This document shows positions 1 to 33,875 of a stretch of 64,000 bases of DNA, piece after piece. Within the stretch, counting starts at the first letter, position 1. Each line of letters begins with the position of its first letter. Location: assembly GCA_049664225.1 (NCBI GenBank), contig JBATEX010000114.1, positions 56,351 to 120,350 on the forward strand, in the 5' to 3' direction. The DNA comes from Thermoanaerobaculia bacterium (GTDB lineage: Bacteria > Acidobacteriota > Thermoanaerobaculia > Multivoradales > JAHEKO01). Both the position numbers and the translations under genes were made by a program. The notes under the pieces are model-generated. The model did not search any database. It was not told where the DNA came from and was given only the letters and a program-made list of their open reading frames with translations.

Positions 1-456
1 GTGCTGTACCTTCTTTGCCTTCCAGGACTCGATCTCCGAATGGCAGGTAGCGCATAGTTCGTTGGGCTGATCGAGGAGCATCCCACGAATATTGCCGCCA
101 TGAGGTTGATGACATTGGGTACATGCGCCTTCGGCGAACGGCTGATGAATGACTGTTCGCTGGGCTGCAAGGGTGGTGTTGGGGTGGCAGGAAGCGCAAA
201 GGACACCGGGCCTCTCCAGCAGCAACCCGGCAATTCGCGAGACGTGTGGATTGTGGCACGCGATGCAGTCGCCCTCCGTGATCGGCGGGTGAGGGAATTT
301 GCTGGCCATCGCTTCATCGAAATCGTGGCACTCGAGACAGACTCGACCGTCCTGCGCGCTGGCCAGCGAGGGAGAGGCCTCACTCCGATCGGGCCCGAGC
401 ACCAATGCGAACCACAACGCAGCTAGTAATCCGACGCAGCTGAGCAGCGTTTTCAC
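1..456 (-). CDS. multiheme cytochrome c, partial (3' part lies beyond window start)
   Basis: Reverse-strand reading from a GTG at 456-454 gives VKTLLSCVGLLAALWFALVLGP... (signal-peptide-like). It continues with CLECH, CIACHNPH, CASCH, CTQCHQPH and CATCH motifs to position 1 without a stop. The GTG overlaps the TGA stop of the upstream 26-haem gene (GTGA). This ORF is not in the track because it is incomplete. Confidence 0.6.
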   Translation of the reverse strand, partial: MKTLLSCVGLLAALWFALVLGPDRSEASPSLASAQDGRVCLECHDFDEAMASKFPHPPITEGDCIACHNPHVSRIAGLLLERPGVLCASCHPNTTLAAQRTVIHQPFAEGACTQCHQPHGGNIRGMLLDQPNELCATCHSEIESWKAKKVQH

Positions 457-2414
457 TGAGCACCTCCTGACGGCTCTGTCACCGCTTCGTGGCAAGCGGA
501 ACAGTCGCCGGCAGCAAACGGGTCGTGTTGCTGCGGCTGTAGTAGACCTGTCATCAGCGAAGCATGCGGGTCGTGGCAGGATGCACATTCGAGACCGTCG
601 CCTGAAAACCCAAGGTGGTCTGCGGTGAATCCCGTATCGCCGGTCTCGTGGCACTGCCCACAGGTAGCGCTCTCGCTGTCCAGTAGCAGGTTTCGCTCCG
701 CCGTTGCATGGGGACCATGGCAGCCGAGGCAGCCATCGGGCTCGCCGGCTGGTTGATGTACAGTCTCGGTAGCCAACCGTTCACCCAGATCCGAATGGCA
801 GGTGAAGCAAAGGGCAGGTATCGCAGCGCGAAGCAGAGGCTCCCTTTCACTTGCGTGTGGCTGGTGGCAGGCCGAGCATTCGTTGGCAGCGGGCGCATGC
901 AAGCTGCCGCCTTCCTCCGGCGCATCCGCTGTGTCGTGACAGGTGCGACACAGCCGCCCCGGCGACTCTGTAAGGAGGAACTCGACATCGGAGCCGTGGG
1001 GCAGATGGCAGGTTGCGCACTCACCCTCCTCGAAGGGGACATGTAACTGACGTTCTGTCGGCGAGGTTTCTGACGAATGACATTCGGAACACAAATCCTT
1101 GCCCTGTGCTAGCAGGAGTCCGGTGTTTCCACCGTGGGGCGTATGACACCCGGTGCATTCGCCGCGGGCTACAGGTTCGTGAAGAACTCGCAGACCGGCG
1201 CGGGCTCCGATGCCACCGTGACAGTCGCCACACAGATCATCCTGCCGAGCCACCAGAAGTCCCTCGCGACCGGAGCCATGCGGAGCATGGCAGAGGGTGC
1301 AGCTCTCTTCCAGAGGAGAGTGGCTGACTTCGACATCGCCCGCCGGATCACCATGGCAGTCAAGGCACAGTTGCCGCTCTGTTGTGCGCAACAGTGCGGG
1401 ATGGTTCGATTCGTGTCCGCTGTGGCAATTTGTGCACTGCTCCATCGCGGCGTGCGGATGGCTACCGGATCGGAACTGCTCGGCTTCGGTATGACAGGAA
1501 GTACAGAGCAGCAGCTCGCTGTTCGCGAGTAGAGGAGCGGTCGCTGAGGTGTGGGGCTGGTGACAATCCAGGCAGAGCCCACCGGCTGCCGGTCCATGCG
1601 TCGAGGTGGCGGAGCCGGTCGGAGGATCATGGCAATCCAGACAGATCTTGGCGTCGGGCAGATTCGCCAACTCACTGTCGTCCCGGTGGCAGGACGTACA
1701 GTCGAGATCTGGATGGACGGAGGCCAGCAGCAGTCCTTCCGAGGCCCCCGAATGAGGAGAGTGACAGCTGGTGCACTGACTGCCTGTGGGCTGCAGCCCT
1801 CCATGGGCGGCACGAAGCCCGTCGCCAGAGTCGTGACACTCGAAGCAGAGCGATGCTGCAGGCAACGCGAGTAGTTGCTCTTCGGTACTGCCGTGAATCG
1901 CGTGACAAGACAAACATCCGCCGTCCATCGCAGCGTGTTGCGCACTACCCTCGAAGCTGGAGCTCCCGTGGCAGGAGAGACACATCTCCTTCTCCGGCTG
2001 CTGAAGCAAACCGGCGTTGTCGGACCCATGAGGGTTGTGACAGGTGGAACAAGCTTCGATATTTGGATGTCGCACAGCGCTGTCGAGCCCCAGATCCTCA
2101 CTCGAGTGGCAATCCGAACAGAGCTCGAGCTCGTCGCTCTTGAGCCTCAATACACCCACGATTCCGTGTGGCTGATGGCAGGAGGTGCAATCTCCTCCGA
2201 TCATCGGTTCATGGGCGAAGGCGACCGGCTTGACGCTGTCGGCATGACAGTCGGCACAGGTTCCTCCCCGATCGAAGCGAGAGCCGCGCTTCAGCTGCGC
2301 CATCGCCGGAGCCGTTGCCATGAGACTCCAGAGCAGGACGACTGCTCCGGCCGTGGCCAGCCAGGGAAGCCCAGGACCCGAGCACTTGGTTGTCTTGGAG
2401 ATGAATCCAGTCAT
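453..2414 (-). CDS. 26-haem c-type cytochrome with periodic CxxCHxPH repeats
   Basis: I count 26 CxxCH motifs in the translation. The predicted signal peptide is MTGFISKTT...ATAPAMA|Q. I trimmed the start to the internal Met at 2414 because the track start at 2501 overlaps the upstream gene by 68 nt; the true start remains uncertain. Confidence 0.85.
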   Translation of the reverse strand: MTGFISKTTKCSGPGLPWLATAGAVVLLWSLMATAPAMAQLKRGSRFDRGGTCADCHADSVKPVAFAHEPMIGGDCTSCHQPHGIVGVLRLKSDELELCSDCHSSEDLGLDSAVRHPNIEACSTCHNPHGSDNAGLLQQPEKEMCLSCHGSSSFEGSAQHAAMDGGCLSCHAIHGSTEEQLLALPAASLCFECHDSGDGLRAAHGGLQPTGSQCTSCHSPHSGASEGLLLASVHPDLDCTSCHRDDSELANLPDAKICLDCHDPPTGSATSTHGPAAGGLCLDCHQPHTSATAPLLANSELLLCTSCHTEAEQFRSGSHPHAAMEQCTNCHSGHESNHPALLRTTERQLCLDCHGDPAGDVEVSHSPLEESCTLCHAPHGSGREGLLVARQDDLCGDCHGGIGARAGLRVLHEPVARGECTGCHTPHGGNTGLLLAQGKDLCSECHSSETSPTERQLHVPFEEGECATCHLPHGSDVEFLLTESPGRLCRTCHDTADAPEEGGSLHAPAANECSACHQPHASEREPLLRAAIPALCFTCHSDLGERLATETVHQPAGEPDGCLGCHGPHATAERNLLLDSESATCGQCHETGDTGFTADHLGFSGDGLECASCHDPHASLMTGLLQPQQHDPFAAGDCSACHEAVTEPSGGAQ

Positions 2415-2433: not shown

Positions 2434-4179
2434 TCAAGGTAAGCCGTGCGCCCCCGGCTCGTCGCCGGTGGCGCTTTCGGCATTGATCTGTAGCGATGCA
2501 ATGTGATCCTCGTAGAACCGGATGTCCGAGTTCTCCCGCAGCGTCATGAGAAGGCTATCCATGGTCTCGGCAAACTTGAGGGACTTGAGACGGTTTCGGA
2601 CGTTTCCCGACACCTCTTCGAATGAATAGTCGCCCTGTTCCTCGACCGCTGCAACTCGCAGAACCACGAAGTTGTCCTCCCACCCCTTGGGGCCGAGAAT
2701 CTCGCCTGCCTCCGTCACTCGCAGCTCGGAGGGACTGAAGGGCTCGATCGCTCGACCCGATTTGATCCACCCGCGATCGCCGCCACTGTCTTTGAACCGA
2801 TCGATAGAGCGCTGGCGGGCAATCCACGACATGTCGGCACCTTCGCGCAAGAGTTGGGCGACCTCTTCAGCCTCCTCCAGCGTGGTAGTGGTGACCTGGA
2901 AGATCCTCAGGTTCGGGGGCTTGCGAAACTCCGGGCGATGCGTTTCATAGTACTGCTCGGCCTCCTCTTGGGGAACCTCGAGGCTTGGCAAGATCACCTC
3001 GTCCAGGTATTTGCCGACCAGAAGTCGGGTCAGATTCGCCTGTTGAGCCCGCTCGACGTCTGGCGAATCACCATAGCCCATGGCCAGGGCCTCGACGAGG
3101 ATCACTTGCTCGGCGATGAGCTTATCGAGAACCAGAGGCTTGGTGAGAAGCGCTGCCTCTTCGTTTTGTACGTTGCGCCAGCGGTCGAGCAGAGCGGCCC
3201 CGAGGTCATCAGCACGAATCAAGCGGTCTTGGATTTGCACAAGGATCTGTTTGGGGTCCGGGACCACCGGCCATAGCCCCTCGCTGCCCCGGCGTTCACA
3301 CCCTATGGCGGCAATGGCCTCGTTGTCGATCTCTGGCTCATGCTTGGCGAGTAGCTCTGCCAGAAGTTCTGCCCTCAGGGTGTCCGCCTGGCGCAACTCG
3401 AGGATCCCCCGAATCCGATCCTCGACCGTTGGCAGGACTTGCGGATCAGCGGCAGCGAAGCTCTCGGCGCGGAACACCGTCCATCCCAGCTCGTTGAGAA
3501 GGGGAGCTGACAGGCTGCCTGGCTCCAGATCGAAGACGACTTCGGCGATCTCGGGAGGCAGGTTCCTGTAGGGGAAATTCTCTGCCAGTCCCCCTTGCCC
3601 TCTCAGGCCGTCGACCGAACGCTCCCTGGCGAGAGCCTCGAAATCTGCACCGGCACGGATCTCGTCGAGGAATCGGCCGGCCTCCTCTCGGGACTTCAAT
3701 GTTGCCATGTGAGCGGTGACTGTGCGGTAGTCCGACTCGAAGATCGTCTCGATCAGACTCTCGTCGATCTCGACTCGGCTCGTGATCGCCTCGTACTCGA
3801 GCCTCTCACGGGCCATGTCGTCGCGCAGTTTTTCGAGTCGCTTCGGAATGGGAGCTTCGCGATCCATCGCCAGGGCCGCGGCCTCGCCTGCGAGGAGAGC
3901 ATCCCCAACCAGCCTATTGCGGATGAGTGAGTCGACGTCGAAGTCGGGCCGCGAGGAAGCCTGAATCCGAGAGTGGAGATCGGAGAGTACCCTTTCCAGG
4001 TCCTCTACATAGACTGGCCAGTCGTTGACCATGGCCAATAAGTTCTTGTCGACAGCGACCTCTTTGGGGATTGCGCTCGAAGTCGGCTCTTCTGCCTGAG
4101 TCCCAGCCGGATGGGCGACGACTGCAAACCCAGCGATGAGGGCCAGTTGGATTGGTAGGGCCAGAAATCTGGTTGACAT
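2434..4179 (-). CDS. SurA/PpiD-like periplasmic chaperone with two PpiC (parvulin) PPIase domains
   Basis: Signal peptide MSTRFLALPIQLALIAGFAVVAHPA. There are two parvulin-like segments (...FEALARERSVDGLRGQGGLAENF... and ...MSWIARQRSIDRFKDSGGDRGWIKSG...). The ATG at 4177-4179 overlaps the TAA stop of the upstream gene (TAATG). Confidence 0.7.
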   Translation of the reverse strand: MSTRFLALPIQLALIAGFAVVAHPAGTQAEEPTSSAIPKEVAVDKNLLAMVNDWPVYVEDLERVLSDLHSRIQASSRPDFDVDSLIRNRLVGDALLAGEAAALAMDREAPIPKRLEKLRDDMARERLEYEAITSRVEIDESLIETIFESDYRTVTAHMATLKSREEAGRFLDEIRAGADFEALARERSVDGLRGQGGLAENFPYRNLPPEIAEVVFDLEPGSLSAPLLNELGWTVFRAESFAAADPQVLPTVEDRIRGILELRQADTLRAELLAELLAKHEPEIDNEAIAAIGCERRGSEGLWPVVPDPKQILVQIQDRLIRADDLGAALLDRWRNVQNEEAALLTKPLVLDKLIAEQVILVEALAMGYGDSPDVERAQQANLTRLLVGKYLDEVILPSLEVPQEEAEQYYETHRPEFRKPPNLRIFQVTTTTLEEAEEVAQLLREGADMSWIARQRSIDRFKDSGGDRGWIKSGRAIEPFSPSELRVTEAGEILGPKGWEDNFVVLRVAAVEEQGDYSFEEVSGNVRNRLKSLKFAETMDSLLMTLRENSDIRFYEDHIASLQINAESATGDEPGAHGLP

Positions 4180-5252
4180 TATCGTCCTACTCCTGTGAGT
4201 TCGAGAGATGGAGATTGATCGGCGAGATCGCTGGTCAGTCGAGCCAATAGCACCGTCAGCAGTTGGCCACGGGAGTATATGCGACGGCCCCGAAAGATCG
4301 TCTGCCGAAACCAGCCGTCACGCTCCAGTGCTCCGGTCCAGACAATTCTTCCGCTCTCGGCGTCGAGTCCTCGCAGAGCGACGGCTACAAAGGGTCTTGG
4401 TTCGGTGCCGGGACCTGCTTCATAGGCTTCGACCGATCCGGTGAGGATCAAGTTGACCTGGCACTCTTCTGCGATGGCGGTCCAGACCTCTCGGCTCAAC
4501 TCGCCCCACCTCCGAGCCCGGTGCTGCCGCAGAACCTCGGCAATTCGGTTTGGAGCCACGATGTCGACCCCGTTTTCTCGGAGCACGGAGTAGAGCGCTT
4601 GCGTGGCTGCGTCGGCGGTGGCAGACGCACGTCTCGCGCTGCTACTGCTCAGGGGTAGGACCGCTATCCTTCCGACAGCGGCCTGCCAATTCGCGCTTGA
4701 TGACGAAGATTCGAGAGGGCGGGGAGCCTCCTCGGCCGTGAGGTCGAGTTGGTCGACAAGATCCAGCAGCGCGAGGTCAGCGAGTCGATCGAGGTCCCAG
4801 ACCTCTCCGAGCCCGAGGAAGTGCAGTCCATCGATGCCGGTTGCGCTCTTGAATGCGCTGCGCGAGTCCTCCGGGGAATCTCCCCTTACCGCCAGAGCAG
4901 AGAGAGTGATGGTAGGTACAGGACGGCTGCGGGATTCATGGAGGGTCACTGAAACGAGCCAGTCGGCCTTCAGAGCTGCTGCTAGTCGAGCGAGGTTCTC
5001 GGCCCCGGCATCGTCAACCTGACGAATTCGGAGCTGGCGAAGAGTGTCGCGCACGTGATTGCGCTCGACCACGGGCCCGGTTCCGAGGAGAAGATTCTCC
5101 AGGTATGTCGCTATTCTCGCCGTCGTGACCGGGTCCGATGCGCGATCCCGCACCGAAATGATCGCCGAGGCCGGCAGCTGCCCTGAGGAGCTGGCCTCGG
5201 CAACGATAGGAAGCAGAACAAGAACGGCAACAAGGCTTGGGCGTAGGCGCAC
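4179..5252 (-). CDS. periplasmic protein with two tandem LpoB/TolB-N/CsgG-like alpha/beta domains
   Basis: Signal peptide MRLRPSLVAVLVLLPIVAEA. Two repeats carry the pattern (I/V)xV-P-L...A..L...L...G...V and ...LILTGSVEAYEAG...RPFVAVALRGLDAESGRIVWTG, which echoes the 204-aa lipoprotein next door. Confidence 0.5.
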   Translation of the reverse strand: MRLRPSLVAVLVLLPIVAEASSSGQLPASAIISVRDRASDPVTTARIATYLENLLLGTGPVVERNHVRDTLRQLRIRQVDDAGAENLARLAAALKADWLVSVTLHESRSRPVPTITLSALAVRGDSPEDSRSAFKSATGIDGLHFLGLGEVWDLDRLADLALLDLVDQLDLTAEEAPRPLESSSSSANWQAAVGRIAVLPLSSSSARRASATADAATQALYSVLRENGVDIVAPNRIAEVLRQHRARRWGELSREVWTAIAEECQVNLILTGSVEAYEAGPGTEPRPFVAVALRGLDAESGRIVWTGALERDGWFRQTIFRGRRIYSRGQLLTVLLARLTSDLADQSPSLELTGVGR

Positions 5253-5274: not shown

Positions 5275-5889
5275 TCAATCGAGAAGAGTATCGAGCAGCT
5301 TTTGGATGCACCGGCGGGTCGTCTCGGCTAGAGGTTCGCCACCCGTGCCCAGCAGGCGAGCGCCGACCGTGCTCCCCTTCTCGGTGTGAGTGGCGGCCCA
5401 GACGATGGCTCCGGTATCGGTTTCGATCATCTGGGCGTCGAGGGTGACAACGGGTCGAAGGGCGGATCCGAATCGCATGACCTCGGATTGGGCGACCGTG
5501 CCAATCACAACCGCCTGTACCCCCAGAGCCTGACCGAGGCCCAGGGCTTCTTCGGAACTGGGTGCGGTCATCCTGCCGCTGCCCATCTTGCGCATCGCCG
5601 CCTGTACCTCGCCCGGCTCGACCACGTCCAGAGCGCCGCTGGCAAGGAGCTCGGTGATCAGCAGGCGCGTAGCCCGCTCGCCGGCCTGAGAATCGGAGCT
5701 CAAATTGGCGAAGGGAATCACCGCCACCCGCTGGACGTATGAGAAATCAAAGCCGGGGTTGGCGAATTGAGTGGTCGGAAGGCTGCTCGAGCAGGCGAGC
5801 AGCGCCATCAAGCCTGTCGAGGTCAGCAGGATGAGAGAGACCCGATTGAGAGTCGTGATTCGCGATTTGCCCATGAACTTGGCCCCCAT
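5275..5889 (-). CDS. lipoprotein of the LpoB/TolB-N/CsgG-like fold
   Basis: Lipobox ...GLMALLAC|SSS. It has the motifs VAVIPFANLSSD...ATRLLITELLASGALDVVEP...VVIGTV...VTLDAQMIETDTGAIVWAA, which parallel E. coli LpoB (LLVDSVNN...LQMQLMLVQTGEIIWSG) and CsgG core strands. Its start abuts the barrel's stop codon (TGAATG). Confidence 0.6.
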   Translation of the reverse strand: MGAKFMGKSRITTLNRVSLILLTSTGLMALLACSSSLPTTQFANPGFDFSYVQRVAVIPFANLSSDSQAGERATRLLITELLASGALDVVEPGEVQAAMRKMGSGRMTAPSSEEALGLGQALGVQAVVIGTVAQSEVMRFGSALRPVVTLDAQMIETDTGAIVWAATHTEKGSTVGARLLGTGGEPLAETTRRCIQKLLDTLLD

Positions 5890-7986
5890 TCAATAGAAGA
5901 AGATGCTGAAGCCGAACAGCAGACTGTTGGTTTGTGAGGTCAGATCACCCCTGAAAGTCACCTCGGATCGGTTCCATCTGCCGGTGAGCAGAACCCGCGG
6001 GTTCAACCGATAGTCAGCCCCAACGGATGCGCCCGACGTCTTTCGCTCCGAGTCGGTGCTGCTTTGGTTGTAGGAAACATTGACGCTCAACTTCGGTCCC
6101 GGAACGAAGAAGATACCGTACCGCTGGCCGGTCGACGTTTGTTCGTTGTCTCGGGACCAAGAGAATAGGCCATTGAGAAACAGGAACGACCCGGGGCTCC
6201 AGGTCGACCCGACCTTGAAGAACTGTCGCTCCAACAGGCTTTCTTGGAGTGGCGATTCGATGAGCGAGTAACCGAGTGCACCATCGAGAGTCCAACGCTG
6301 TGTCGGCCTCGACCTGAGATCCTCACGCCATGACCATGTATTGCGATCCTGATCTCCGGTCGGATCAGTGAGTTCGGAATAGGAGAGAGTGGAAGTCAAG
6401 TCGAGGTCGGGCAGCAAGGCGGTAAACACTCTGAGACGGATGGCGTCGACGGTCTGGAGCAACAGCTCCTTCTCGGCTTGGTCCCTCCGGCTTGCCGAAA
6501 GGACTGCGTCGAGCGTTGGCAGCGGCACCCATCGCAGTGCCGCATCGATCGTCTCGGTCGTGCGAAACAGACCCCCAGCCGTGCGATTCTCGGAGTCGCT
6601 GTAACGATAGCCGCCACTGAGCTCGAGATCCGAAGTCAATCGAACCCCGACGCTGCCCGACGCGTGACGTTCGTTGAAGTCGCGCCGCACAATGCCCGCC
6701 GTCACGGTCTCGTCGTTGCTGCCTCCGAGGTTGAACCTGGCTGTCACTCGGCGTGAGGGGCGCAAGCCGAGAGAAACATCCCCACGATAGAGTGTACTGT
6801 CTTGGGTGCTCTCTCCCGGCTCGATGTCGAGGTCTCTGAAAGCGGCAATCTCAGTCACCAGGACCACTGGAACCACGTTGGGTGAGATGTTGACGACCTT
6901 GAAGAAACGCTGGTTGGTCTCAGGAAAGCTGACTCTATAGAGCTGTCGACCAGCGTCGAATTCCGCCGACTCGCCCGCTACCCGCTCCCAGATCAGGTTG
7001 TCGGCGCTCTGAAACACCTGCCACAGCACGGCGGGGCCCGAAGGCCGATCGACCGAGACCTCGAGACGCGAGACAGGCAGAATCGCGCCGACGTCGATGC
7101 CGAGATTCCGAAAGGCGTTACCACCACCGATATCGATGATCGGAGGGGAGGGAGTAAAACGGTCGCCGTCGATGAGTCCAGGAGCGGGCTCGAGCTCGCC
7201 AACCTCCGGTGAAGTATCGATCGCGTAGAGGCCCTGAACCGCTGGAATCGGCTCGGCGAGGTCGTCATCTCCAGAGGTCCTCGACTGACTCTCGATGCGA
7301 CCCGCCGAGCCCGAGAAGCCCAGGCGGAGGCGCTCGTCGAAGAAGCCACGGCTTCCCGCCAGTCTCAATCGATGGACATCCTGGAGCGAGGCGAAGTCGG
7401 TAGATTCCTTCTCCAGGTCGTTGCGATTGAAGGAGTATCCCGCAGACCACCGTTTCCGCCTGTAGGTCGCATCGAAGAGGTAGGTGCGTTGGTGACCATC
7501 CCGGCCCAGGGCCGACACGTCGGCCTCGTTCTTGGAGTCGCGCGCCTGGCCCGAAAGAGTCAGCCCCCTCGTTGCGCGCCACGAGAAGCCGCCAAACAGC
7601 GCGTCAGACTGAAAGTCCTCGCTTTCGAAGGTTCCCTGAGACGTCCGCCGCTCAGCTCCCAGGTATGCGGACAAGGATGGCCTGTCATAGAGCAGCTGAA
7701 ATCGGGGATTCTGTCGGGTGCGGCTCGCCTCCGGTAGGCCGCTGAACTGGGAGGTGTAATCATAGTAGCGATAGCCGGCCTGCAATTTCAAGAAAGGCGC
7801 CAATTCCTCGGTCAGCCTCAGCGAGTACTTTTGCTCGAGGTTGTCACTGTCGGTCGCCAGGGTGTCGACGGATGTCCAGTAGACGATGGCGGTCGCGTTG
7901 AAGTCGAGGGCAAGAGCGAGTTGAGGCGAGGTCAAGAACGCAACGAGGGCGACTCGAGCCAACAGCTGTTGAAGGTCCAGGCGCAT
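5890..7986 (-). CDS. large outer-membrane beta-barrel protein (698 aa) with an internal soluble insert
   Basis: Signal peptide MRLDLQQLLARVALVAFLTSPQLALA. The body shows alternating hydrophobic/polar amphipathic strand patterns. The C-terminus ...LLFGFSIFFY ends in an aromatic residue, as in BAM-dependent OMPs. A polar/Pro-rich insert of about 150 aa (DDDLAEPIPAV...VTEIAAF) sits mid-protein. Confidence 0.7.
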   Translation of the reverse strand: MRLDLQQLLARVALVAFLTSPQLALALDFNATAIVYWTSVDTLATDSDNLEQKYSLRLTEELAPFLKLQAGYRYYDYTSQFSGLPEASRTRQNPRFQLLYDRPSLSAYLGAERRTSQGTFESEDFQSDALFGGFSWRATRGLTLSGQARDSKNEADVSALGRDGHQRTYLFDATYRRKRWSAGYSFNRNDLEKESTDFASLQDVHRLRLAGSRGFFDERLRLGFSGSAGRIESQSRTSGDDDLAEPIPAVQGLYAIDTSPEVGELEPAPGLIDGDRFTPSPPIIDIGGGNAFRNLGIDVGAILPVSRLEVSVDRPSGPAVLWQVFQSADNLIWERVAGESAEFDAGRQLYRVSFPETNQRFFKVVNISPNVVPVVLVTEIAAFRDLDIEPGESTQDSTLYRGDVSLGLRPSRRVTARFNLGGSNDETVTAGIVRRDFNERHASGSVGVRLTSDLELSGGYRYSDSENRTAGGLFRTTETIDAALRWVPLPTLDAVLSASRRDQAEKELLLQTVDAIRLRVFTALLPDLDLTSTLSYSELTDPTGDQDRNTWSWREDLRSRPTQRWTLDGALGYSLIESPLQESLLERQFFKVGSTWSPGSFLFLNGLFSWSRDNEQTSTGQRYGIFFVPGPKLSVNVSYNQSSTDSERKTSGASVGADYRLNPRVLLTGRWNRSEVTFRGDLTSQTNSLLFGFSIFFY

Positions 7987-8247: not shown

Positions 8248-9381
8248 TTACGGAATAATCAGGCTATCGAAAATGTCCTGGCCGTGGCACTTGTTGCAGA
8301 GCGAACGCGTAACCAGGTCGGCCGGGTACGGATTCGGCAGTGGGTAGGTCCCGAAGGCGTCGCCGTCCTCTTCCAGAAAGGTCACGTTGAAGTCCCAGCG
8401 GCCGGAGTCGGCAGCCGAGGATGCGTGCGCGAAATGGCAGGTCACACAGGCGACCACGCTGGAATCCTGAGCACCGACGGTCGAGCCTATGTCGGTTTCA
8501 TCGAAGGTCGAATCTTCGAAGGGCACCTGCCATAGGTAGGCTGTGGCTGCGGTACCGCTGCCACAGGGCGGTGCAGTGGAGGCGACACAGTCGGTCGTTC
8601 CCATGTAGGCGTTGTACTGCTCCCAGACTTCTTCCATGGATTCGCCCGAGGGATGGATGTCGCGGCCTGAGCCCTGATGGAACAGGCCATGGCACGTCGA
8701 GCACCACGCGCTGTAGTTCAAGACGTAGACATTGTGCTCAGGATCGACCCGTGGGTCGTTGCTCAGTGACTGTCCATACGCTTCGATGGTCGCGGCGTAG
8801 GTGACCGACGAAACGCCGAGATCCACTTCCTGGTCTTGACGATAGAGGAGCCGGAAACTGTCGTTGCCGTGTGGGTCGTGGCAGCTCGAGCAGGCGATGT
8901 CGTTGTCTACGGTATTGCTGCTGCCGGGTGCCCAGTCGAGGGTCTGGTCGACATCGGTACCCTTGATATTCGACGCGATGTTGTGGCCAGCCGCGTCGCC
9001 AGGAATCGGAGCGCCACGTGTCGACTCGGCTAGATTGGCTTCGGTCAAGAAGCTGAAGTCACCAGCGTTTCCGAAGTCGACGGGGTCTGTCGCATCGGGA
9101 CTCCACACCGAGTAGCTCCTGCCTGTACGGCCATGGCAGCGCAGGCAAACGTCACTCCTGTTCGGAAAGAGAAGGAGGTCGTTGTAGCCTTCGCCAGGGA
9201 GTTTGTCTGGGTTGATCGGATTGCCGTTGGCATCCGCCTCGGTGCCGTTCATGGCAACACCGTTCTGGCTGTTGTGCATGGTGTGGCAACCGTTGCAGTG
9301 AGCGACACCACCGTCATGGAAAGCCATGACCGGGGTGGCGAGGATCACTGCGGCGGCCACCAGTAGCAGGGTTTTTTTCAT
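8248..9381 (-). CDS. secreted hexahaem c-type cytochrome, OmcS-like (candidate nanowire subunit)
   Basis: Start at the internal Met (MKKTLLLVAAAVILATPVMA|F) preceded by AAGGAG. There are six CxxCH motifs (CNGCH, CLRCH, CSSCH, CSTCH, CVTCH, CNKCH). The mature N-terminus FHDGGVAHCNGCHTMHN resembles Geobacter OmcS as I recall it (FHSGGVAECEGCHTMHN; Phe1 and His16). The C-terminus ...LCNKCHGQD is also similar. Confidence 0.75.
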   Translation of the reverse strand: MKKTLLLVAAAVILATPVMAFHDGGVAHCNGCHTMHNSQNGVAMNGTEADANGNPINPDKLPGEGYNDLLLFPNRSDVCLRCHGRTGRSYSVWSPDATDPVDFGNAGDFSFLTEANLAESTRGAPIPGDAAGHNIASNIKGTDVDQTLDWAPGSSNTVDNDIACSSCHDPHGNDSFRLLYRQDQEVDLGVSSVTYAATIEAYGQSLSNDPRVDPEHNVYVLNYSAWCSTCHGLFHQGSGRDIHPSGESMEEVWEQYNAYMGTTDCVASTAPPCGSGTAATAYLWQVPFEDSTFDETDIGSTVGAQDSSVVACVTCHFAHASSAADSGRWDFNVTFLEEDGDAFGTYPLPNPYPADLVTRSLCNKCHGQDIFDSLIIP

Positions 9382-10518: not shown

Positions 10519-11880
<1,362 letters not shown>

Positions 11881-11887
11881 GGGCTAA

Positions 11888-13573
11888 TCAAGCGGGGTCG
11901 TTTCCCGGGAGCGCCGGTTCTGTGAGTTCTGACTCGTCAAGTGCATCGCTGTCTGATGTCGGTGCCGGCTCTTCACCCTCTTCCCCTGGAAGGATCAAGT
12001 AGAAGTTCGTTCCCTTGCCGACTTCGGAATCGACTTGCAGCGTACCACCGTGCTGCTCCACGAGGCTCCGAGCGATGGCCAGTCCGAGGCCTGTCCCTGA
12101 GAACTTGGTGGAGAAGAAGGGCTCGAATACACGCTTGAGCTGTTCGGGTGGGATGCCGGGGCCGTCGTCTTGCACCGCCAGCACGATGCCGCCGCCTTCT
12201 GGGAAGCCGCTAGCACGAACCGTGACGGCCCCACCGTCCTCCATGGCTTCGGCGGCGTTCTGGATGAGGTTGAGGAGCACCTGCCGAATCTTCGAGCCGT
12301 CGATCTGGGCCTCCAGGGGGCCTTCGGTTAGATCGAGCTCCAGGGCCACGTTCTGGCGTCGCAAACCGGGGGCCATGAGGATGCGGACGTCGTCCAACAG
12401 CTTGTTGAGATCGGTTTTCGCCAAGCGGGCCGGGCCGGGTCGTGCCGAGCCGAGCAGGCTGCGCAGCGTCCCATTGACCCGCTTCAGCTCGCTCAGCATC
12501 TCGTCGTACAGCTCTTTGTTGGAGTCGCTTACCGATGGTTCTTCCCGCAAGATCTCCAGTGCACCCTGAATTCCGGCCAGGGGATTCTTGATTTCATGGG
12601 CAAGACCGGCCGCCAGGCTGCCGAGGCTCGCCAGCTGGTCAGTGTGGGCCAGTTTGGTAGCTACCTCCGCTTGCCGGCGACGCTGCCGCTGCAGGAACTG
12701 CTGGAGGGAGCGCTGGAGCTCCGCCGAATGGGGGTCGAGGACCAGCCGGTGGGCTCCGGAGGCCGGTCCCTCGCCCGACTCGGCGGCGGCCAGTTCCTCT
12801 TCGAATTTGCTGGAGAAACGTTGCACGGATCGCCTAACCAGGGCGTTGATGCCGCCCAGGGCCGCTGCCCAGGCCAGCAGGAGGAGTCCGACATTACGCC
12901 GCGAGTGCTTTCGGACCGTTTGGAGAGCGTTGGTGACGTCCATGCTCATGGAGGCGACGGCAAGCGTTTCACCAGCGGAGTGGCAGCGCACGCACTGCTC
13001 CGTGGAAATCACTTTGCTAATACCCCGCACCCTTTCGCGATCTCCCTCTGCACTGAGCCACACCTCCTGCAAGCGTGGGCTGGGAATGAACTCCTGCACG
13101 ACCTCGAGCTCTGGGACCGTGATTCCGGTGGCGGCTCCAATTGTCCTTCCGTCAGGAAACATCAGTTTGAGATTCATGCCCTGGTGGCCGGCCAGAACCG
13201 CCTCGAACATGTGGCGGACACCGCCGCCACGGGTGTGTGCAACGGCGATCTGGTTGAGTTCTCGAGTCGCGATATTCAGTCTTCCTTCGGCTGTTTCGCG
13301 AGCCAGGCCCACGACTTCCATCTCCGTGATGCGGACCGTCGCGAAGTAGAGAATCCAAAAGGCGAACAGGTGCAGGGGCAGAGTGATCAGCCAGAAGCGC
13401 CCACGGCGAGCCATGAAAGCGCGGAACCGGGCCCGCCTACCGGGCCTGCTCAGGACCTCCACAGGTCCATCGGAAGAGTCGATCTCGGGGAGTTCCCCGT
13501 TGGTCTCTTCGCTGCCGGCAACGCCAGGCTCGATCGCTCCTTCGATGGGTCCCTCGGATTCCTGCGATGTCAT
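11888..13573 (-). CDS. sensor histidine kinase with a periplasmic CxxCH (haem-c) sensor domain
   Basis: TM1 FWLITLPLHLFAFWILYFATV. A periplasmic segment of about 170 aa contains CVRCH (nt ~12980-12994). TM2 VGLLLLAWAAALGGINALV. H-box LAHEIKNPLAGIQ. HATPase motif GTGLGLAIARSLVEQHGGTL. The start is ambiguous (M at 13573 or 13414). Confidence 0.85.
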   Translation of the reverse strand: MTSQESEGPIEGAIEPGVAGSEETNGELPEIDSSDGPVEVLSRPGRRARFRAFMARRGRFWLITLPLHLFAFWILYFATVRITEMEVVGLARETAEGRLNIATRELNQIAVAHTRGGGVRHMFEAVLAGHQGMNLKLMFPDGRTIGAATGITVPELEVVQEFIPSPRLQEVWLSAEGDRERVRGISKVISTEQCVRCHSAGETLAVASMSMDVTNALQTVRKHSRRNVGLLLLAWAAALGGINALVRRSVQRFSSKFEEELAAAESGEGPASGAHRLVLDPHSAELQRSLQQFLQRQRRRQAEVATKLAHTDQLASLGSLAAGLAHEIKNPLAGIQGALEILREEPSVSDSNKELYDEMLSELKRVNGTLRSLLGSARPGPARLAKTDLNKLLDDVRILMAPGLRRQNVALELDLTEGPLEAQIDGSKIRQVLLNLIQNAAEAMEDGGAVTVRASGFPEGGGIVLAVQDDGPGIPPEQLKRVFEPFFSTKFSGTGLGLAIARSLVEQHGGTLQVDSEVGKGTNFYLILPGEEGEEPAPTSDSDALDESELTEPALPGNDPA

Positions 13574-13604
13574 TCGGCTCGGGTGACCTCGGCTTGAATT
13601 CCGG

Positions 13605-14423
13605 CTAGGTGGTCTTATTGCCCCTGAGCGCCATGAAGACCAGGAGAATGCCCACGCCGATGACAATCAGGCCTGGAACCAGCCAGGGAGACACTCCCTC
13701 GGATGGAGGTGGTCCGGCCTGGCTTGCAGCTCCACTGGTAGGCACTGACGCAGGAGACTGGAAGGTCTGAGCTGGTGTCTGTGGAACAGCCGATTGCATG
13801 GCGTTCGCAGTGAGCATCGGGGAACTCTTCGTGTAGTCGATTTCGATCGCGAAGGTCTGGTCGACGGCTGCCGGGCCGAGGTCTCCGCGTTGATAGATGA
13901 GGCCGTCGTTGGCCAGGGCGGGTGCGCTGCTAGCGGGCTGCACCACGAAACCGGTAGCGCCGATCGGTTGCATGACCTCGAACAGGACGCGATCTGCTGC
14001 CAAGCCCCCAGGCCATTCGAAGTGGTAGTGGCGGTTCTCGTTGCCCAAATCGAGGGGTATGTAGTACTCGAGGCGAATCTCGGGAGCGTCGGTCGAGATG
14101 TAGACCGTGCTCATAGGGTCGCCGGCTTCCAGCATGGACTGGGCGACAAGCAGATCGCCCCCTGGGAACCTCTTTGCCACGGCGCTCGGACTCCCTGCCG
14201 CGGCTGGAATCGGCAACGGTACCGAGGTCGGAAGTGGGGTGTCTGGCGAGAGAAAGCCCCGAAGCATCACGAGCACCGAAGGCTGGTCGTACTCCGGCCA
14301 GATGGAGATCTCCAGGCGCTCGAGGCGCGGCGTGGCCGGTGCAGGCGCTTCCTGGGCGGAAGCAATGCCTGCCGAGGTCAAGAGTAGGACAAGGAAGGCG
14401 AGAGTCGTTGGCCTGGTCTTCAT
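13605..14423 (-). CDS. secreted protein with a C-terminal membrane anchor, function unknown
   Basis: Internal-Met start with signal peptide MKTRPTTLAFLVLLLTSAGIASA|Q. C-terminal helix WLVPGLIVIGVGILLVFMAL. It sits immediately upstream of, and overlaps, the kinase gene. Confidence 0.45.
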   Translation of the reverse strand: MKTRPTTLAFLVLLLTSAGIASAQEAPAPATPRLERLEISIWPEYDQPSVLVMLRGFLSPDTPLPTSVPLPIPAAAGSPSAVAKRFPGGDLLVAQSMLEAGDPMSTVYISTDAPEIRLEYYIPLDLGNENRHYHFEWPGGLAADRVLFEVMQPIGATGFVVQPASSAPALANDGLIYQRGDLGPAAVDQTFAIEIDYTKSSPMLTANAMQSAVPQTPAQTFQSPASVPTSGAASQAGPPPSEGVSPWLVPGLIVIGVGILLVFMALRGNKTT

Positions 14424-15969: not shown

Positions 15970-19557
<3,588 letters not shown>

Positions 19558-19825
19558 GATGAGTCGTTCCTTGTCGAAAAGCGCGGGTCGCGAGTCTTGT
19601 GGGCGTAGAGGCGTAGGGGCTTGGGGGCATCGGGCCCCGCCTTGCGATTGCCAGGCTAGCAGTAGGCACAGGGGCAGCCTACACCCAGGTGGGTGGACCC
19701 GGGGGCGAGAATGCCCCACCCTCAAGGGTGGGTGTGAGGCTACCCTTCTGCCTCTGGCACTGCTGCGGGGTCAGAGCAATGATTGGATGGGGTATTCTCT
19801 TGGCAGCACCAAAAGGGGAACCAAA

Positions 19826-28940: not shown

Positions 28941-30845
28941 GTGGGATCCAGGATTCTCCGATTCATGCTGGTCGCCTCCCTTGGTGGGGGCGCGGCCTTT
29001 CTCGTATCGCCGGCACCATCAGCAGGCGCCGATGCGCCGATGTGCCTCGACTGTCACGACACCGATGTCGATGCGTTCGCTGAATCCGTTCACGGCTTCG
29101 CGGAGTGTCTCGACTGCCACGTGGGTGCCGACTCGGAAGACCACCCGGAAGTTGGCACGAAGGCCGACTGCACAGGCTGTCATGAAGGGGAGGTGGAACA
29201 GCACCATCTCAGTGTGCATGGTCGGATGGAGGCCTCCGGTCGACTTCCCGGCAATGGTGGCTGCGGCAGCTGTCACGGCGACATTCATACTCTTCTACTG
29301 CACGAAGATCCGGCGTCGGCGACCAATCCGCTTAGCATTGCCGGCACCTGTGGTAGCTGTCACTCCGATCCTGATCTGGCAGCCGATCTCGGAATCCGCC
29401 TCGTGCAGCCGATCGAGGCGTACAGCGAGAGCGTGCATTCGCGAGCCGTCCAGCGGGGTGTCAAGGCGGCCACTTGCTCCGAGTGCCATGGGACTCACGA
29501 CATCCAACCGGCTGCGAGGGTGGATTCAAGAGTCCATGCCGACAAAATCCCCCAGACCTGCGGCAAATGCCATGGCTCGGTGACCGCGGTTTTCAACGAG
29601 AGCGTCCATGGCCGGGCCGTGGCGCACGGCCTGGAGGATGCTCCGACCTGCACCGACTGCCATGGCGAGCACCGCATTTTGGAACCCAAGCGCGGTGACT
29701 CCACCGTCTATCCGACCAACCTGCCGAAGATGACCTGCGGCCGCTGCCACGGTGATCTGGCGCTGTCCGACAAGTTCGGGATGGAGGAGGACAAGGTCCC
29801 GGCGTACGAAGACAGTTACCACGGCCTGGCTTCCCGCTCCGGAAACGTCGTTGTGGCCAACTGCGCTTCGTGCCACGGCGTGCATGACATCCTGCCTTCG
29901 ACTGACGAGAAGTCGCATACCTTCCCGGATAATCTGGATGAGACCTGCGGCCAATGCCATCCGGGCGCCGGCGAGCGGTTCGCCATCGGCGCAGTGCATG
30001 TGCTGCCGGATGAGCCAGAGCACGCGGCCGTCTACTGGGTCCGCAAGATCTACCTCTGGCTGATCTTTCTCACGATTGGCGGGATGCTGCTGCACAACGC
30101 TCTCGACTTCTACCGGAAGCTCCGGCATCCGTTGCCTCGGCCCTCGGAGCAGGTGGAGGATGCGGTCGAGCGAATGTCGGTGGCGGGTCGCATCACTCAC
30201 GGCCTGTTGGCGGTGAGCTTTATCATCCTGGTCCACACCGGATTCGCACTCAAGTACCCCGAAGCGTGGTGGGCCTGCCCGTTGCCCTTCTTGAAGGGAT
30301 TCTGTGAGCTGCGAGGCTTGATCCACCGCATCGCTGCGGTGGTGATGATTCTCGCTTCGGTGATGCATGTCATCCACTTGATGGTCGATCGCAGGGCCAG
30401 GACCCTGATGAAGGGCATGATTCCCCAGCTCAGCGATCTGCGCGACCTGAAGGGCAAGTTCGACTATTTCCTCGGGCGCACCAAACATCCTCCGAAAGCA
30501 GAGTGGTTCAGCTACCCGGAGAAGATGGAGTATGGAGGGGTCCTGTGGGGCACGTTTGTAATGGCGGTGACAGGAGTGCTCCTCTGGTTCGAGAGCATCA
30601 CGCTCCGGTTCCTACCGAGTTGGACCCTGGATGTGGCGACCACGGTCCACTTCTACGAGGCGATTTTGGCGACTCTCTCAATTGCCATCTGGCACTTCTA
30701 CCACGTGATTTTCGACCCAGCAGTCTATCCAGTGGATACTGCTTTCCTGACCGGCGAGTCGCCACCGATTAGGAACCTCGAGCGCAATCCACCGAAGCTG
30801 CCTGAAGACAAGGATCACCCCCACGCCCCGGCGCATCCAGCGTAG
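28941..30845 (+). CDS. CbcL-like fusion: 11-haem cytochrome c N-domain plus a dihaem cytochrome b (FdnI/HydC-like) membrane domain
   Basis: GTG start after GGAGGGGGG, then a signal peptide. I count 11 CxxCH motifs. The C-terminal half has 4-5 TM helices with conserved His (LHNALDFY, ITHGLLAV, VMHVIHLM, WHFYHVIF). Confidence 0.8.
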   Translation: MGSRILRFMLVASLGGGAAFLVSPAPSAGADAPMCLDCHDTDVDAFAESVHGFAECLDCHVGADSEDHPEVGTKADCTGCHEGEVEQHHLSVHGRMEASGRLPGNGGCGSCHGDIHTLLLHEDPASATNPLSIAGTCGSCHSDPDLAADLGIRLVQPIEAYSESVHSRAVQRGVKAATCSECHGTHDIQPAARVDSRVHADKIPQTCGKCHGSVTAVFNESVHGRAVAHGLEDAPTCTDCHGEHRILEPKRGDSTVYPTNLPKMTCGRCHGDLALSDKFGMEEDKVPAYEDSYHGLASRSGNVVVANCASCHGVHDILPSTDEKSHTFPDNLDETCGQCHPGAGERFAIGAVHVLPDEPEHAAVYWVRKIYLWLIFLTIGGMLLHNALDFYRKLRHPLPRPSEQVEDAVERMSVAGRITHGLLAVSFIILVHTGFALKYPEAWWACPLPFLKGFCELRGLIHRIAAVVMILASVMHVIHLMVDRRARTLMKGMIPQLSDLRDLKGKFDYFLGRTKHPPKAEWFSYPEKMEYGGVLWGTFVMAVTGVLLWFESITLRFLPSWTLDVATTVHFYEAILATLSIAIWHFYHVIFDPAVYPVDTAFLTGESPPIRNLERNPPKLPEDKDHPHAPAHPA

Positions 30846-32652: not shown

Positions 32653-33875
32653 GACCACCAAGACGAGCGCAGCTGACCGACGGGTTGATCGCCGGGCTGA
32701 TTGGGGCGCTATGGACCCTGGCGTCCGTTCCGGTGTCCGCCCAGGAGATGTGTGGGACCTGCCACCCCGAGAATCGTGTGAGCTTCGAGCAGAGCATCCA
32801 TCACCTTGAGAACGTGAGCTGCAGCGACTGTCATGGGGGAGACCCGGCAGCCCGCGAAGTGAAGGCAGCCCATCAGCGTGACTTTCGCAGTCTGTCCGAT
32901 CGGCTCGAGGTGCCGCAGATGTGTGCATCGTGCCACGCCGACCTGGATCAGATGCGGGCCTATAATCTGCCTGTCGACCAGTACGCGGTCTACCTGACGT
33001 CCCAGCACGGCAAAGCCCTGGTCGCGGGTGAGACCAGGGCGGCGATCTGCACCGACTGTCACGGCGGGCACGATATTCGGCGCCCCCGCGATCCATCTAG
33101 CTCGGTCCACCCGAGACACATTCCAGAGACGTGCGGTCAATGCCACGGAAATGAAGCCCTGATGCAGGAGTTCGGGCTGGACCCCAACGTGGTGACGGAC
33201 TACCGCTCCAGCATTCATGGTCGTATGTTGCTCGAGGAAGGTTCCCTGGCGGCGCCCAACTGCACGAGTTGTCACGGGGTCCACGGCGCCACGCCACCGG
33301 GTGTCGGAGACATCGACAAGGTCTGCGGAGCCTGTCACGAGCAGACGAGACGGGCCTTTCTGGAGGGTCCTCATTACGAGGGGATGACAGCCGCGAGTGT
33401 TGCCGAATGCGCCTCGTGCCATTCGAATCATGCCATCCAGCAGTTCGGCATCGAGCGAGTCGAGTCACTCTGCGCCGAGTGTCACGGTGAGGGCTCCGAT
33501 CAAGCCGTCCTAGGTCACAAGATCCATGCCCTGATCGACTCGGCCGGCGAGGAGGTTGCCGCAGCCGAGGCGTTGGTGCGCCGGGCCGACCAGGCCGCGC
33601 TCGAGGTGGAGGATCCGTTGAGCCGGGTGGAGGAGGCCAAGACCTATCTGACCGAAGCCTTGCCGGCCGTGCATTCGGTTTCCCTGGAGCCAGTCGAGCA
33701 GCTGACCCGTCGTGCCCAGTCCATCGCCGAAGAGGTCGAGCACGAGCTCTACTCGAAGCTGGACCGACGAGTCGCCAAGATCGGCCTGGTGCTTTTCTGG
33801 TTCTACCTGCTCATGACGATCGCGGTGCTGGTCATCTTCAGGCGCCGGCTGCGGTCCGAGACGGAGGCTTCATGA
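32650..33875 (+). CDS. membrane-anchored 9-haem cytochrome c subunit
   Basis: Start MRPPRRAQLTDGLIAGLIGALWTLASVPVSA. I count nine CxxCH motifs. C-terminal TM helix IGLVLFWFYLLMTIAVLVIF. The start overlaps the cytochrome b stop. Confidence 0.85.

Follow-up and report, generated by a model that had tools for sequence, protein, structure and literature searches.

Cytochromes with 26 haems have been described since 2017, when Skennerton et al. (PMC5539420) reported a four-gene core operon comprising a six-bladed β-propeller protein, a 16-haem and a 26-haem cytochrome, and a peptidyl-prolyl isomerase (PPIase). The hosts of this core are the sulfate-reducing partners of methanotrophic archaea, Desulfuromonadales, Anaeromyxobacter, and others, and no physiological function was known for it (PMC5539420). 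Both cytochromes were predicted to be periplasmic, and the SEEP-SRB1 genomes contained no homologue of the previously identified porins of porin-cytochrome complexes (PMC5539420). The member from Geobacter sulfurreducens, GSU2495, carries 26 haems in about 70 kDa and is listed as periplasmic; it is now named oscI, with GSU2494 being oscJ. Described here is a protein of this family encoded at positions 453–2414, on the reverse strand, of a 64,000-nucleotide stretch of DNA (contig JBATEX010000114.1) from a metagenome-assembled genome (MAG) of a Thermoanaerobaculia bacterium (Acidobacteriota). The whole of this stretch is referred to below as the window. New in this comparison are the relationship between the 26-haem and 16-haem cytochromes, which occur either as a split pair or fused into one 42-haem protein, and the lineage-specific lipobox of the 26-haem protein.

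The OetABI conduit of Murali et al. (2023, PMC10553843) consists of a periplasmic OetA, a barrel, OetI, and an extracellular-facing lipoprotein, OetB, and is often accompanied by OmcS-like genes. According to a later paper citing Shen et al. (2025), products of the osc (omcS companion) operon are reported to act in the folding (OscH), secretion (OscE, OscF, and OscG), and morphology (OscD) of OmcS nanowires. PCC3 of the iron oxidisers (He et al. 2017, PMC5566968) includes a repeat-built, low-complexity periplasmic cytochrome with a median of 21 haems, found beside a porin and proposed to be a molecular wire.

The operon of the window starts with a six-haem cytochrome, followed on the reverse strand by a barrel, a lipoprotein, a 357-residue protein, a PPIase, the 26-haem and 16-haem cytochromes, and two proteins with NHL repeats; the part beyond the window edge was read from contigs that carry the identical protein (locus L001). 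The haem counts along these nine genes are 6, 0, 0, 0, 0, 26, 16, 0, and 0. Judged from its sequence, the 26-haem protein is a member of the GSU2495/OscI family. It is an exported protein of 653 residues with 26 CxxCH motifs, a 16-haem gene lies directly downstream, and PPIase and NHL genes are present in the operon. GSU2495/OscI similarly has 26 CxxCH motifs in about 650 residues, with a PPIase upstream, a 16-haem protein and then NHL propellers downstream, and genes for a barrel, a lipoprotein, and OmcS-like proteins further upstream. The window protein may be regarded as the putative Thermoanaerobaculia orthologue of GSU2495/OscI, with the protein of Geobacter sp. AOG1, and not GSU2495 itself, serving as the sequence proxy (36% identity, E=1e-106, in a locus with a gene order matching that of the window). 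So far as the names map, the genes from the barrel to the 16-haem cytochrome follow the order oscE to oscJ, and the Acidobacteriota MAG carries a complete osc/oet-type cluster for extracellular electron transfer. The differences from the Geobacter system concern the host, which is a member of Thermoanaerobaculia rather than of Desulfobacterota, the absence of a lipobox, unlike in the versions from sulfate reducers and many Desulfuromonadales, and the absence of an OscD-like gene between the OmcS-like gene and the barrel, unlike in the osc operon.

OetABI appears to be the type of cassette found in the window, which has a barrel, two cytochromes, and an OmcS-like gene, with neither of the two cytochromes carrying a lipobox. 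OetB is probably the 26-haem and OetA the 16-haem protein, an assignment made from the lipobox pattern alone, as haem counts are absent from Murali et al. PCC3 resembles the window protein by description, both being repeat-built, very haem-dense, and porin-linked. However, judged by Pfam contents and haem counts, the five-helix inner-membrane protein and the very large extracellular cytochrome that define PCC3 fit none of the nine operon genes, and this candidate was rejected.

Haem motifs, repeat domain, and structural relatives

The gene starts with an ATG at 2414 and ends with a TGA at 453–455, and the same 653-residue product was called by gene callers on seven public contigs. The protein begins with a Sec signal peptide without a lipobox (residues 1–39, 2298–2414, reverse strand), with the cleavage site between AMA and QLKRG read by eye. 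In the AlphaFold2 (AF2) model the signal region is a helix (residues 18–45) with a low predicted local distance difference test score (pLDDT). A 99%-identical relative on an ENA contig (P0001, 857 residues) is called as a single protein that contains rotamase domains and 23 haem motifs. The frame of the window cytochrome is open upstream to 2543, overlapping the 3′ end of the PPIase gene in another frame, and the fused call of P0001 is likely a one-base indel or an artefact of gene calling.

An earlier reading of this DNA, made from the sequence only, had counted 26 CxxCH motifs in the protein, and the number is exactly right; 5000 shuffles of the same protein contain 0.34 such motifs on average and at most five, and the other five frames of the region contain none. 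The motifs are spaced by 19–28 residues, with a median of 23. The density is one haem per 25.1 residues overall, again in agreement with the earlier estimate of about 25, and one per 23.6 in the mature protein. The composition includes no Trp and no Tyr, and only 1.8% Phe.

Two kinds of motif alternate along the chain. The 12 haems of B type comprise ten CxxCHxPH motifs, that is, every one of the ten strings listed by the sequence-only reading, which had counted at least that many, as well as two motifs lacking the proline (CLSCHAIH and CTNCHSGH). The remaining motifs, of A type, are followed by a lone His located 10–13 residues past the motif His (15–18 past the first Cys), close to the distance of 12–15 residues given before. 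The autocorrelation of residue identity peaks at lags 46–47 (z about 7), with harmonics at 23 and 93–94, and the peak at 46–47 is retained when the CxxCH residues are masked (z 4.8). The two-haem period of ~45 residues that had been proposed is real, with a length of 46–47, but it does not run unbroken along the entire protein, as its register slips at haems 9/10, where the A type occurs twice in succession; haem 26 is a terminal A-type haem. The architecture can be described as two modules of 9 and 17 haems, A(BA)4 + A(BA)8. According to motif typing, module 1 (haems 1–9, ABABABABA) occupies 1686–2258 and module 2 (haems 10–26, A(BA)8) occupies 489–1643, both on the reverse strand. The string of module 1 is identical in 33 of the 44 homologues with 26 haems.

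When 45 homologues with 26 haems are aligned, the 26 CxxCH motifs and 26 additional His residues all prove to be either invariant or conserved to 90% or more. One candidate distal ligand would thus be available for each haem. With no open coordination or catalytic site apparent in the sequence, the protein should only pass electrons.

The repeat corresponds to the "doubled CXXCH" domain (PF09699 in Pfam; TIGR01905), present in 12 copies (E=3e-119) and scoring 389 bits, compared to 100 bits for PF14522. The model of the DmsE/MtrA decahaem family, TIGR03508, reaches 288 bits against a cut-off of 192.2, with the match spread over seven overlapping stretches of the repeat. Among solved structures, the top and only close relative is 6r2q_A, which, despite a wrong molecule name in the search table, we take to be the MtrA chain of the MtrCAB complex from Shewanella baltica. 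The E value of this match is 8e-21 by sequence, 8e-34 (120 bits) with a profile of 45 homologues, and 3e-6 by Foldseek. The AF2 model of the 26-haem protein (mean pLDDT 78) consists of short helices and coil only.

The features common to the window protein and the MtrA/DmsE/PioA/MtoA decahaem family are the two-haem "doubled CXXCH" block and the bis-His chain. Members of that family are likewise encoded together with a large outer-membrane barrel, and MtrB gives the best template modelling score (TM-score) for the barrel of the window. MtrA-like proteins have ten haems in ~300–350 residues, whereas the window protein has 26 in 653, so that its mature chain is denser than those of MtrA homologues, with about 33 residues per haem (PMC5566968). 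In addition, the barrel of the window is encoded three genes off and does not reach the MtrB_PioB threshold, and the window protein is paired with a second wire of like kind.

The Geobacter poly-c7 dodecahaems (GSU1996 and GSU0592/OmcQ), which had been put forward for comparison, are likewise modular, "nanowire-like" periplasmic multihaem proteins, but they are built of three-haem c7 domains. They proved to be distant and were rejected, since the period of 46–47 residues contains two haems, not three, and GSU1996 (3ov0) scores only 36 bits in the profile search, against 120 bits for MtrA. The description of the product as a modular, very haem-dense poly-haem protein is borne out: the chain is capable of bis-His ligation throughout and is of the MtrA type by sequence, profile, and fold. 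The known family that it matches end to end is itself repetitive, and the periodicity is evident from the autocorrelation.

Split and fused forms and their distribution

A search with the 26-haem protein returned more than 1000 matches. In the best 120 homologues, the number of haems is sharply quantised, with 26 haems in 44 proteins and 42 haems in 59. The latter, named "cytochrome c3 family proteins" and found in Zixibacteria, Latescibacterota, Gemmatimonadota, Krumholzibacteriia, and others, were split before haem 27, and their halves were aligned separately. In all 59 of them, haems 1–26 match the 26-haem protein end to end and are colinear with the window protein, while haems 27–42 match the 16-haem protein end to end, with a score above that against any stretch of the 26-haem protein. 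The strings of motif types are 9+17 in the 26-haem class and 9+17+9+7 in the 42-haem class, identical in 52 of the 59. The 42-haem proteins run unbroken into the 16-haem part, whereas in the window the two parts are separate genes. Across the fusion point, between haems 26 and 27, the spacing (median 22 residues, range 16–27) does not differ from that within the chain. The 26-haem protein of the window extends 11 residues beyond its last motif, and about five residues come before the first motif of the 16-haem protein if the latter is cut after ASA (a site read by eye). Joined, the two ends would fill a gap like that in the fusions.

The cytochrome gene following downstream (1–456, reverse strand), in which the sequence-only reading had correctly recognised the same motif, is the 5′ part of the OscJ-like 16-haem gene, cut by the window edge. 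Its full product in locus L001 has 421 residues and 16 CxxCH motifs, is built of the same repeat, and carries the NCBI name "cytochrome c3 family protein". At the junction of the two genes (453–470, reverse strand), the TGA of the 26-haem gene overlaps the GTG start of the 16-haem gene by four nucleotides (GTGA), and a Shine-Dalgarno site, AGGAGG, is located seven nucleotides upstream of the GTG. The overlap, together with the position of AGGAGG within the upstream gene, would imply translational coupling.

Gene adjacency was counted by the ends of open reading frames (ORFs). A 16-haem gene lies directly downstream of 36 of the 38 genes for 26-haem proteins that have enough downstream sequence. 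The two exceptions are a pair located at a locus edge and a 16-haem gene split 10+6 by a frameshift, as seen in the MAG of locus L037. In turn, no 16-haem gene comes after any of the 12 42-haem genes of the scanned loci, and the same is true for three further 42-haem neighbourhoods. Both forms are found a few kilobases apart in a MAG of an uncultured delta proteobacterium (L038, contig_30905), which has a split pair of 25/26-haem and 16-haem genes as well as a fused 42-haem gene. The 42-haem loci (L007–L009, L034, L048, and L051–L056) usually retain the LpoB/CsgG-like lipoprotein and OmcS-like genes. The searchable literature, which did not extend to Shen et al. (2025), contained no mention of a 42-haem form or of a 26+16 fusion.

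Synteny was assessed with the operon proteins as probes on 80 loci, which came from a scan of species-representative genomes with an alignment of seven sequences. The order of the operon recurs in more than ten phyla. It is found in Acidobacteriota, Ignavibacteria, Thermodesulfobacteriota, Desulfobulbaceae, Nitrospirota, Deferrimicrobiaceae, Eisenbacteria, Schekmanbacteria, a Geobacter, an EthSRB1 MAG, Spirochaetota, Planctomycetota, and an alphaproteobacterial MAG. The nearest genomic relatives of the 26-haem protein, with 46–50% identity, belong to Acidobacteriota/Thermoanaerobaculia, and the order of all nine genes is retained in a locus at 45% identity. A PPIase is encoded directly upstream of 28 of 34 genes for 26-haem proteins, and an LpoB/CsgG-like lipoprotein is present in all 23 of the 26-haem loci with wide flanks.

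A lipobox is present in the 26-haem protein in 14 of 35 loci, including those of EthSRB1, Desulfuromonadales, Nitrospirota, Planctomycetota, and Spirochaetota MAGs, and in none of 40 16-haem proteins. By the criterion of the scan, it is also absent from all 11 of the 42-haem proteins, with a lipobox-like NGC noticed by eye in L054. The window protein and its relatives from Acidobacteriota have a plain Sec signal without a lipobox. In proteins with a lipid anchor, the 9-haem module at the N terminus is held at a membrane, which is presumably the outer membrane.

Proposed role of the 26-haem protein and alternatives

The occurrence of 26+16 fusions indicates that the C terminus of the 26-haem protein and the N terminus of the 16-haem protein probably meet, forming one 42-haem chain. 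With moderate confidence, we favour a reading in which the 26-haem protein is exported by Sec and acts as a poly-haem electron wire resembling MtrA, contributing most of a 42-haem chain that serves the barrel/filament module. Docking of its C terminus onto the N terminus of the 16-haem protein would create a continuous chain of 42 haems. This chain would serve the module encoded upstream, namely the ~28-strand barrel, the lipoprotein, the 357-residue protein, and the OmcS-like filament cytochrome, and would conduct electrons between the cell surface and carriers located in the inner membrane or the periplasm. That the two cytochromes are halves of one obligate 42-haem wire, made as two coupled chains or as one polypeptide depending on the phylum, is a more tentative proposal, to which we give slightly less than even chances. 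A role as the electron carrier of the locus, suggested by the sequence-only reading, coincides with the published hypothesis for the GSU2495/OscI family, and the operon indeed encodes a large outer-membrane barrel.

MtrA accommodates its 10 haems in about 8 nm, as seen by crystallography. A maximal dimension of about 10 nm has also been given for it (PMC5566968). Scaled from these values, the 26-haem protein, if straight, would be about 21–26 nm long and the pair about 34–42 nm, spanning most or all of the periplasm. How electrons cross the 20–40 nm of the periplasm to reach outer-membrane conduits or filaments is debated, with small diffusible cytochromes being the usual answer. If the proposed reading is true, a 42-haem protein "cable" would span the whole periplasm without diffusible carriers. 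The GSU2495/OscI family is widespread, extending over more than ten phyla that include the sulfate-reducing partners of methane-oxidising archaea, and its haem count is strikingly fixed. The relation of the split and fused forms predicts that GSU2495 docks with its C terminus onto the N terminus of GSU2494, and the 42-haem proteins, as a natural single-chain version, should ease structural study. For the window itself, the main consequence is a correct annotation of an extracellular electron transfer cluster.

Several points weigh against the proposed wire. The literature that we read contains neither a solved structure nor a demonstrated function for any member of the family. The Foldseek alignment to MtrA covers only 175 columns, the predicted template modelling score (pTM) of the AF2 model is 0.48, and both the straightness and the length of the chain are extrapolated from MtrA. 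The values of pLDDT and pTM, as well as the presence of short helices and coil only, fit a thin, core-less chain with a long-range shape that is not fixed by the prediction. A gene fusion marks a functional link and strongly suggests contact, without being proof of it. The module is also not uniform, since a PPIase is found in only one of 12 fused 42-haem loci, that locus having the split pair as well, and the barrel probe matches only two of nine 42-haem loci. In anode-evolved strains of G. sulfurreducens, oscJ (GSU2494) is frameshifted (position 868), a hint that this mode of growth, at least, can do without the pair. Shen et al. (2025), as summarised by a citing paper, assign neighbouring osc genes to nanowire folding and secretion. 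Finally, the lipobox found in 14 of 35 loci would serve as a membrane tether for the N terminus and is equally compatible with a surface-lipoprotein model.

Such a model is the alternative that survives best, although we consider it rather unlikely. It assumes an OetABI-type conduit in which the 26-haem protein faces outward and the 16-haem protein is periplasmic and inserted in the barrel, so that the two meet inside the ~28-strand barrel in the manner of MtrC and MtrA in MtrB. Such an arrangement agrees with the locations given by Murali et al. (PMC10553843) for OetA, OetB, and OetI, with the presence of a lipobox in the 26-haem but never in the 16-haem proteins, and with the best TM-score of the barrel being to MtrB; it also needs the end-to-end contact implied by the fusions. 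On the other hand, a lipobox is missing from the window protein and from its relatives in Acidobacteriota, and the correspondence of OetA and OetB to the two cytochromes derives from the lipobox pattern alone. Furthermore, GSU2495 is listed as periplasmic, both cytochromes of the core operon were predicted to be so, and no known porin of the porin-cytochrome complexes has a homologue in the SEEP-SRB1 genomes (PMC5539420). In the case of a 42-haem fusion, moreover, one and the same chain would need to pass through the barrel.

An accessory role in the biogenesis of OmcS-type nanowires, with the 26/16-haem pair setting the redox state of the subunits or of the filament base, or templating polymerisation, seems improbable. 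On this view, which has also been taken of the cluster in the literature, its products form an assembly and secretion machinery for nanowires instead of a porin-cytochrome conduit. The osc operon is reported, in a summary of Shen et al. (2025) by a citing paper, to act in the folding, secretion, and morphology of OmcS nanowires; GSU2495 and GSU2494 are its oscI and oscJ, and in the window, too, an OmcS homologue is followed by genes in this order. However, a chain of 26 haems with bis-His ligation throughout far exceeds the redox capacity that a chaperone role would need, and the fused 42-haem loci commonly lack the PPIase yet keep the cytochrome. A "capacitor" that stores or shuttles electrons freely in the periplasm, expressed along with the barrel module but not physically wired to it, can be regarded as very improbable, for although periplasmic multihaem cytochromes buffer electrons in Geobacter, and the very high haem content and the soluble, Sec-exported form in this organism would suit such a function, the strictly kept position of its gene relative to those of the barrel, the lipoprotein, and the OmcS-like protein in different phyla, the fixed haem numbers (26, 16, and 42), which argue for a defined length or geometry, and the lipid anchor in many lineages all speak against it.

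Other genes of the operon and of the window

The first gene of the operon (8248–9381, reverse strand) encodes a six-haem homologue of OmcS, 377 residues long and starting with MKKTLLL (phmmer match to 6ef8_A, E=1.5e-22). It aligns with OmcS from the mature residue F1, and its mature N terminus, FHDGGVAHCNGCHTMH, matches FHSGGVAECEGCHTMH of OmcS, including His16. His16 is the residue that, in the OmcS filament, coordinates a haem of the adjacent subunit. By this similarity, the product of 8248–9381 is a candidate subunit of a cytochrome nanowire in an Acidobacteriota MAG.

The outer-membrane β-barrel (5890–7986, reverse strand; 698 residues) occupies the OscE/OetI position, three genes upstream of the 26-haem gene, and comprises about 28 strands and an inserted β domain of ~140 residues. 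In its AF2 model (pLDDT 85.5), 11 and 17 long strands flank the insert. The best TM-score, only 0.42–0.44, is to MtrB (6r2q_B), with the other matches being generic large barrels, and the MtrB_PioB family (PF11854) scores 22.1 bits, below its cut-off of 23. The insert (residues ~244–385, between strands 11 and 12) contains most of the invariant columns of the family alignment, from G252 to E379, and is the most conserved part of the barrel. It is conceivable that it serves as a plug, or as a docking site for a filament or a cytochrome.

The gene that follows (5275–5874, reverse strand) encodes a 199-residue lipoprotein with the lipobox LLAC in the OscF position, which has weak Pfam matches to CsgG (E=1.5e-5) and LpoB (E=2e-4). 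The 357-residue exported protein in the OscG position (4179–5252, reverse strand) is conserved in synteny and has no match in Pfam or NCBIfam. It is followed by the OscH-like protein (2434–4179, reverse strand; 581 residues), a periplasmic PPIase of the PpiC type with two rotamase domains (PF13145, PF00639, and PF13616). The two matches to NHL downstream of the cytochromes, read from locus L001, are faint; used as probes, these proteins recover NHL genes across the loci.

The window includes nine ORFs with at least four CxxCH motifs. One of them (28941–30845, forward strand) is CbcL-like, with 11 haems fused to a cytochrome b561/Ni_hydr_CYTB domain, another (36159–39131, reverse strand) combines 21 haems with a domain of the b561/Ni_hydr_CYTB type, and a third (33872–35566, forward strand) has 18 haems and an N terminus of the NapC/NirT type. 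These large membrane-type proteins with 11, 21, and 18 haems may provide the wire with quinol-linked entry points in the inner membrane.

Directly upstream of the operon are genes for a sigma-54-dependent response regulator (10519–11880, reverse strand) and a histidine kinase (11888–13666, reverse strand), the N-terminal sensor region of which contains one CxxCH motif (CVRCH). The omcS/osc region of G. sulfurreducens likewise adjoins a sigma-54 regulator and a kinase (GSU2506 and GSU2507). No tRNA genes were found in the window, its GC content is even (59–65%), and neither scan gave a hint of a mobile island. Further upstream, an ORF of 1251 residues (15970–19725, reverse strand) resembles by eye a pyruvate:ferredoxin oxidoreductase, with two CxxCxxCxxxCP motifs and a GDG motif of the thiamine-diphosphate type.

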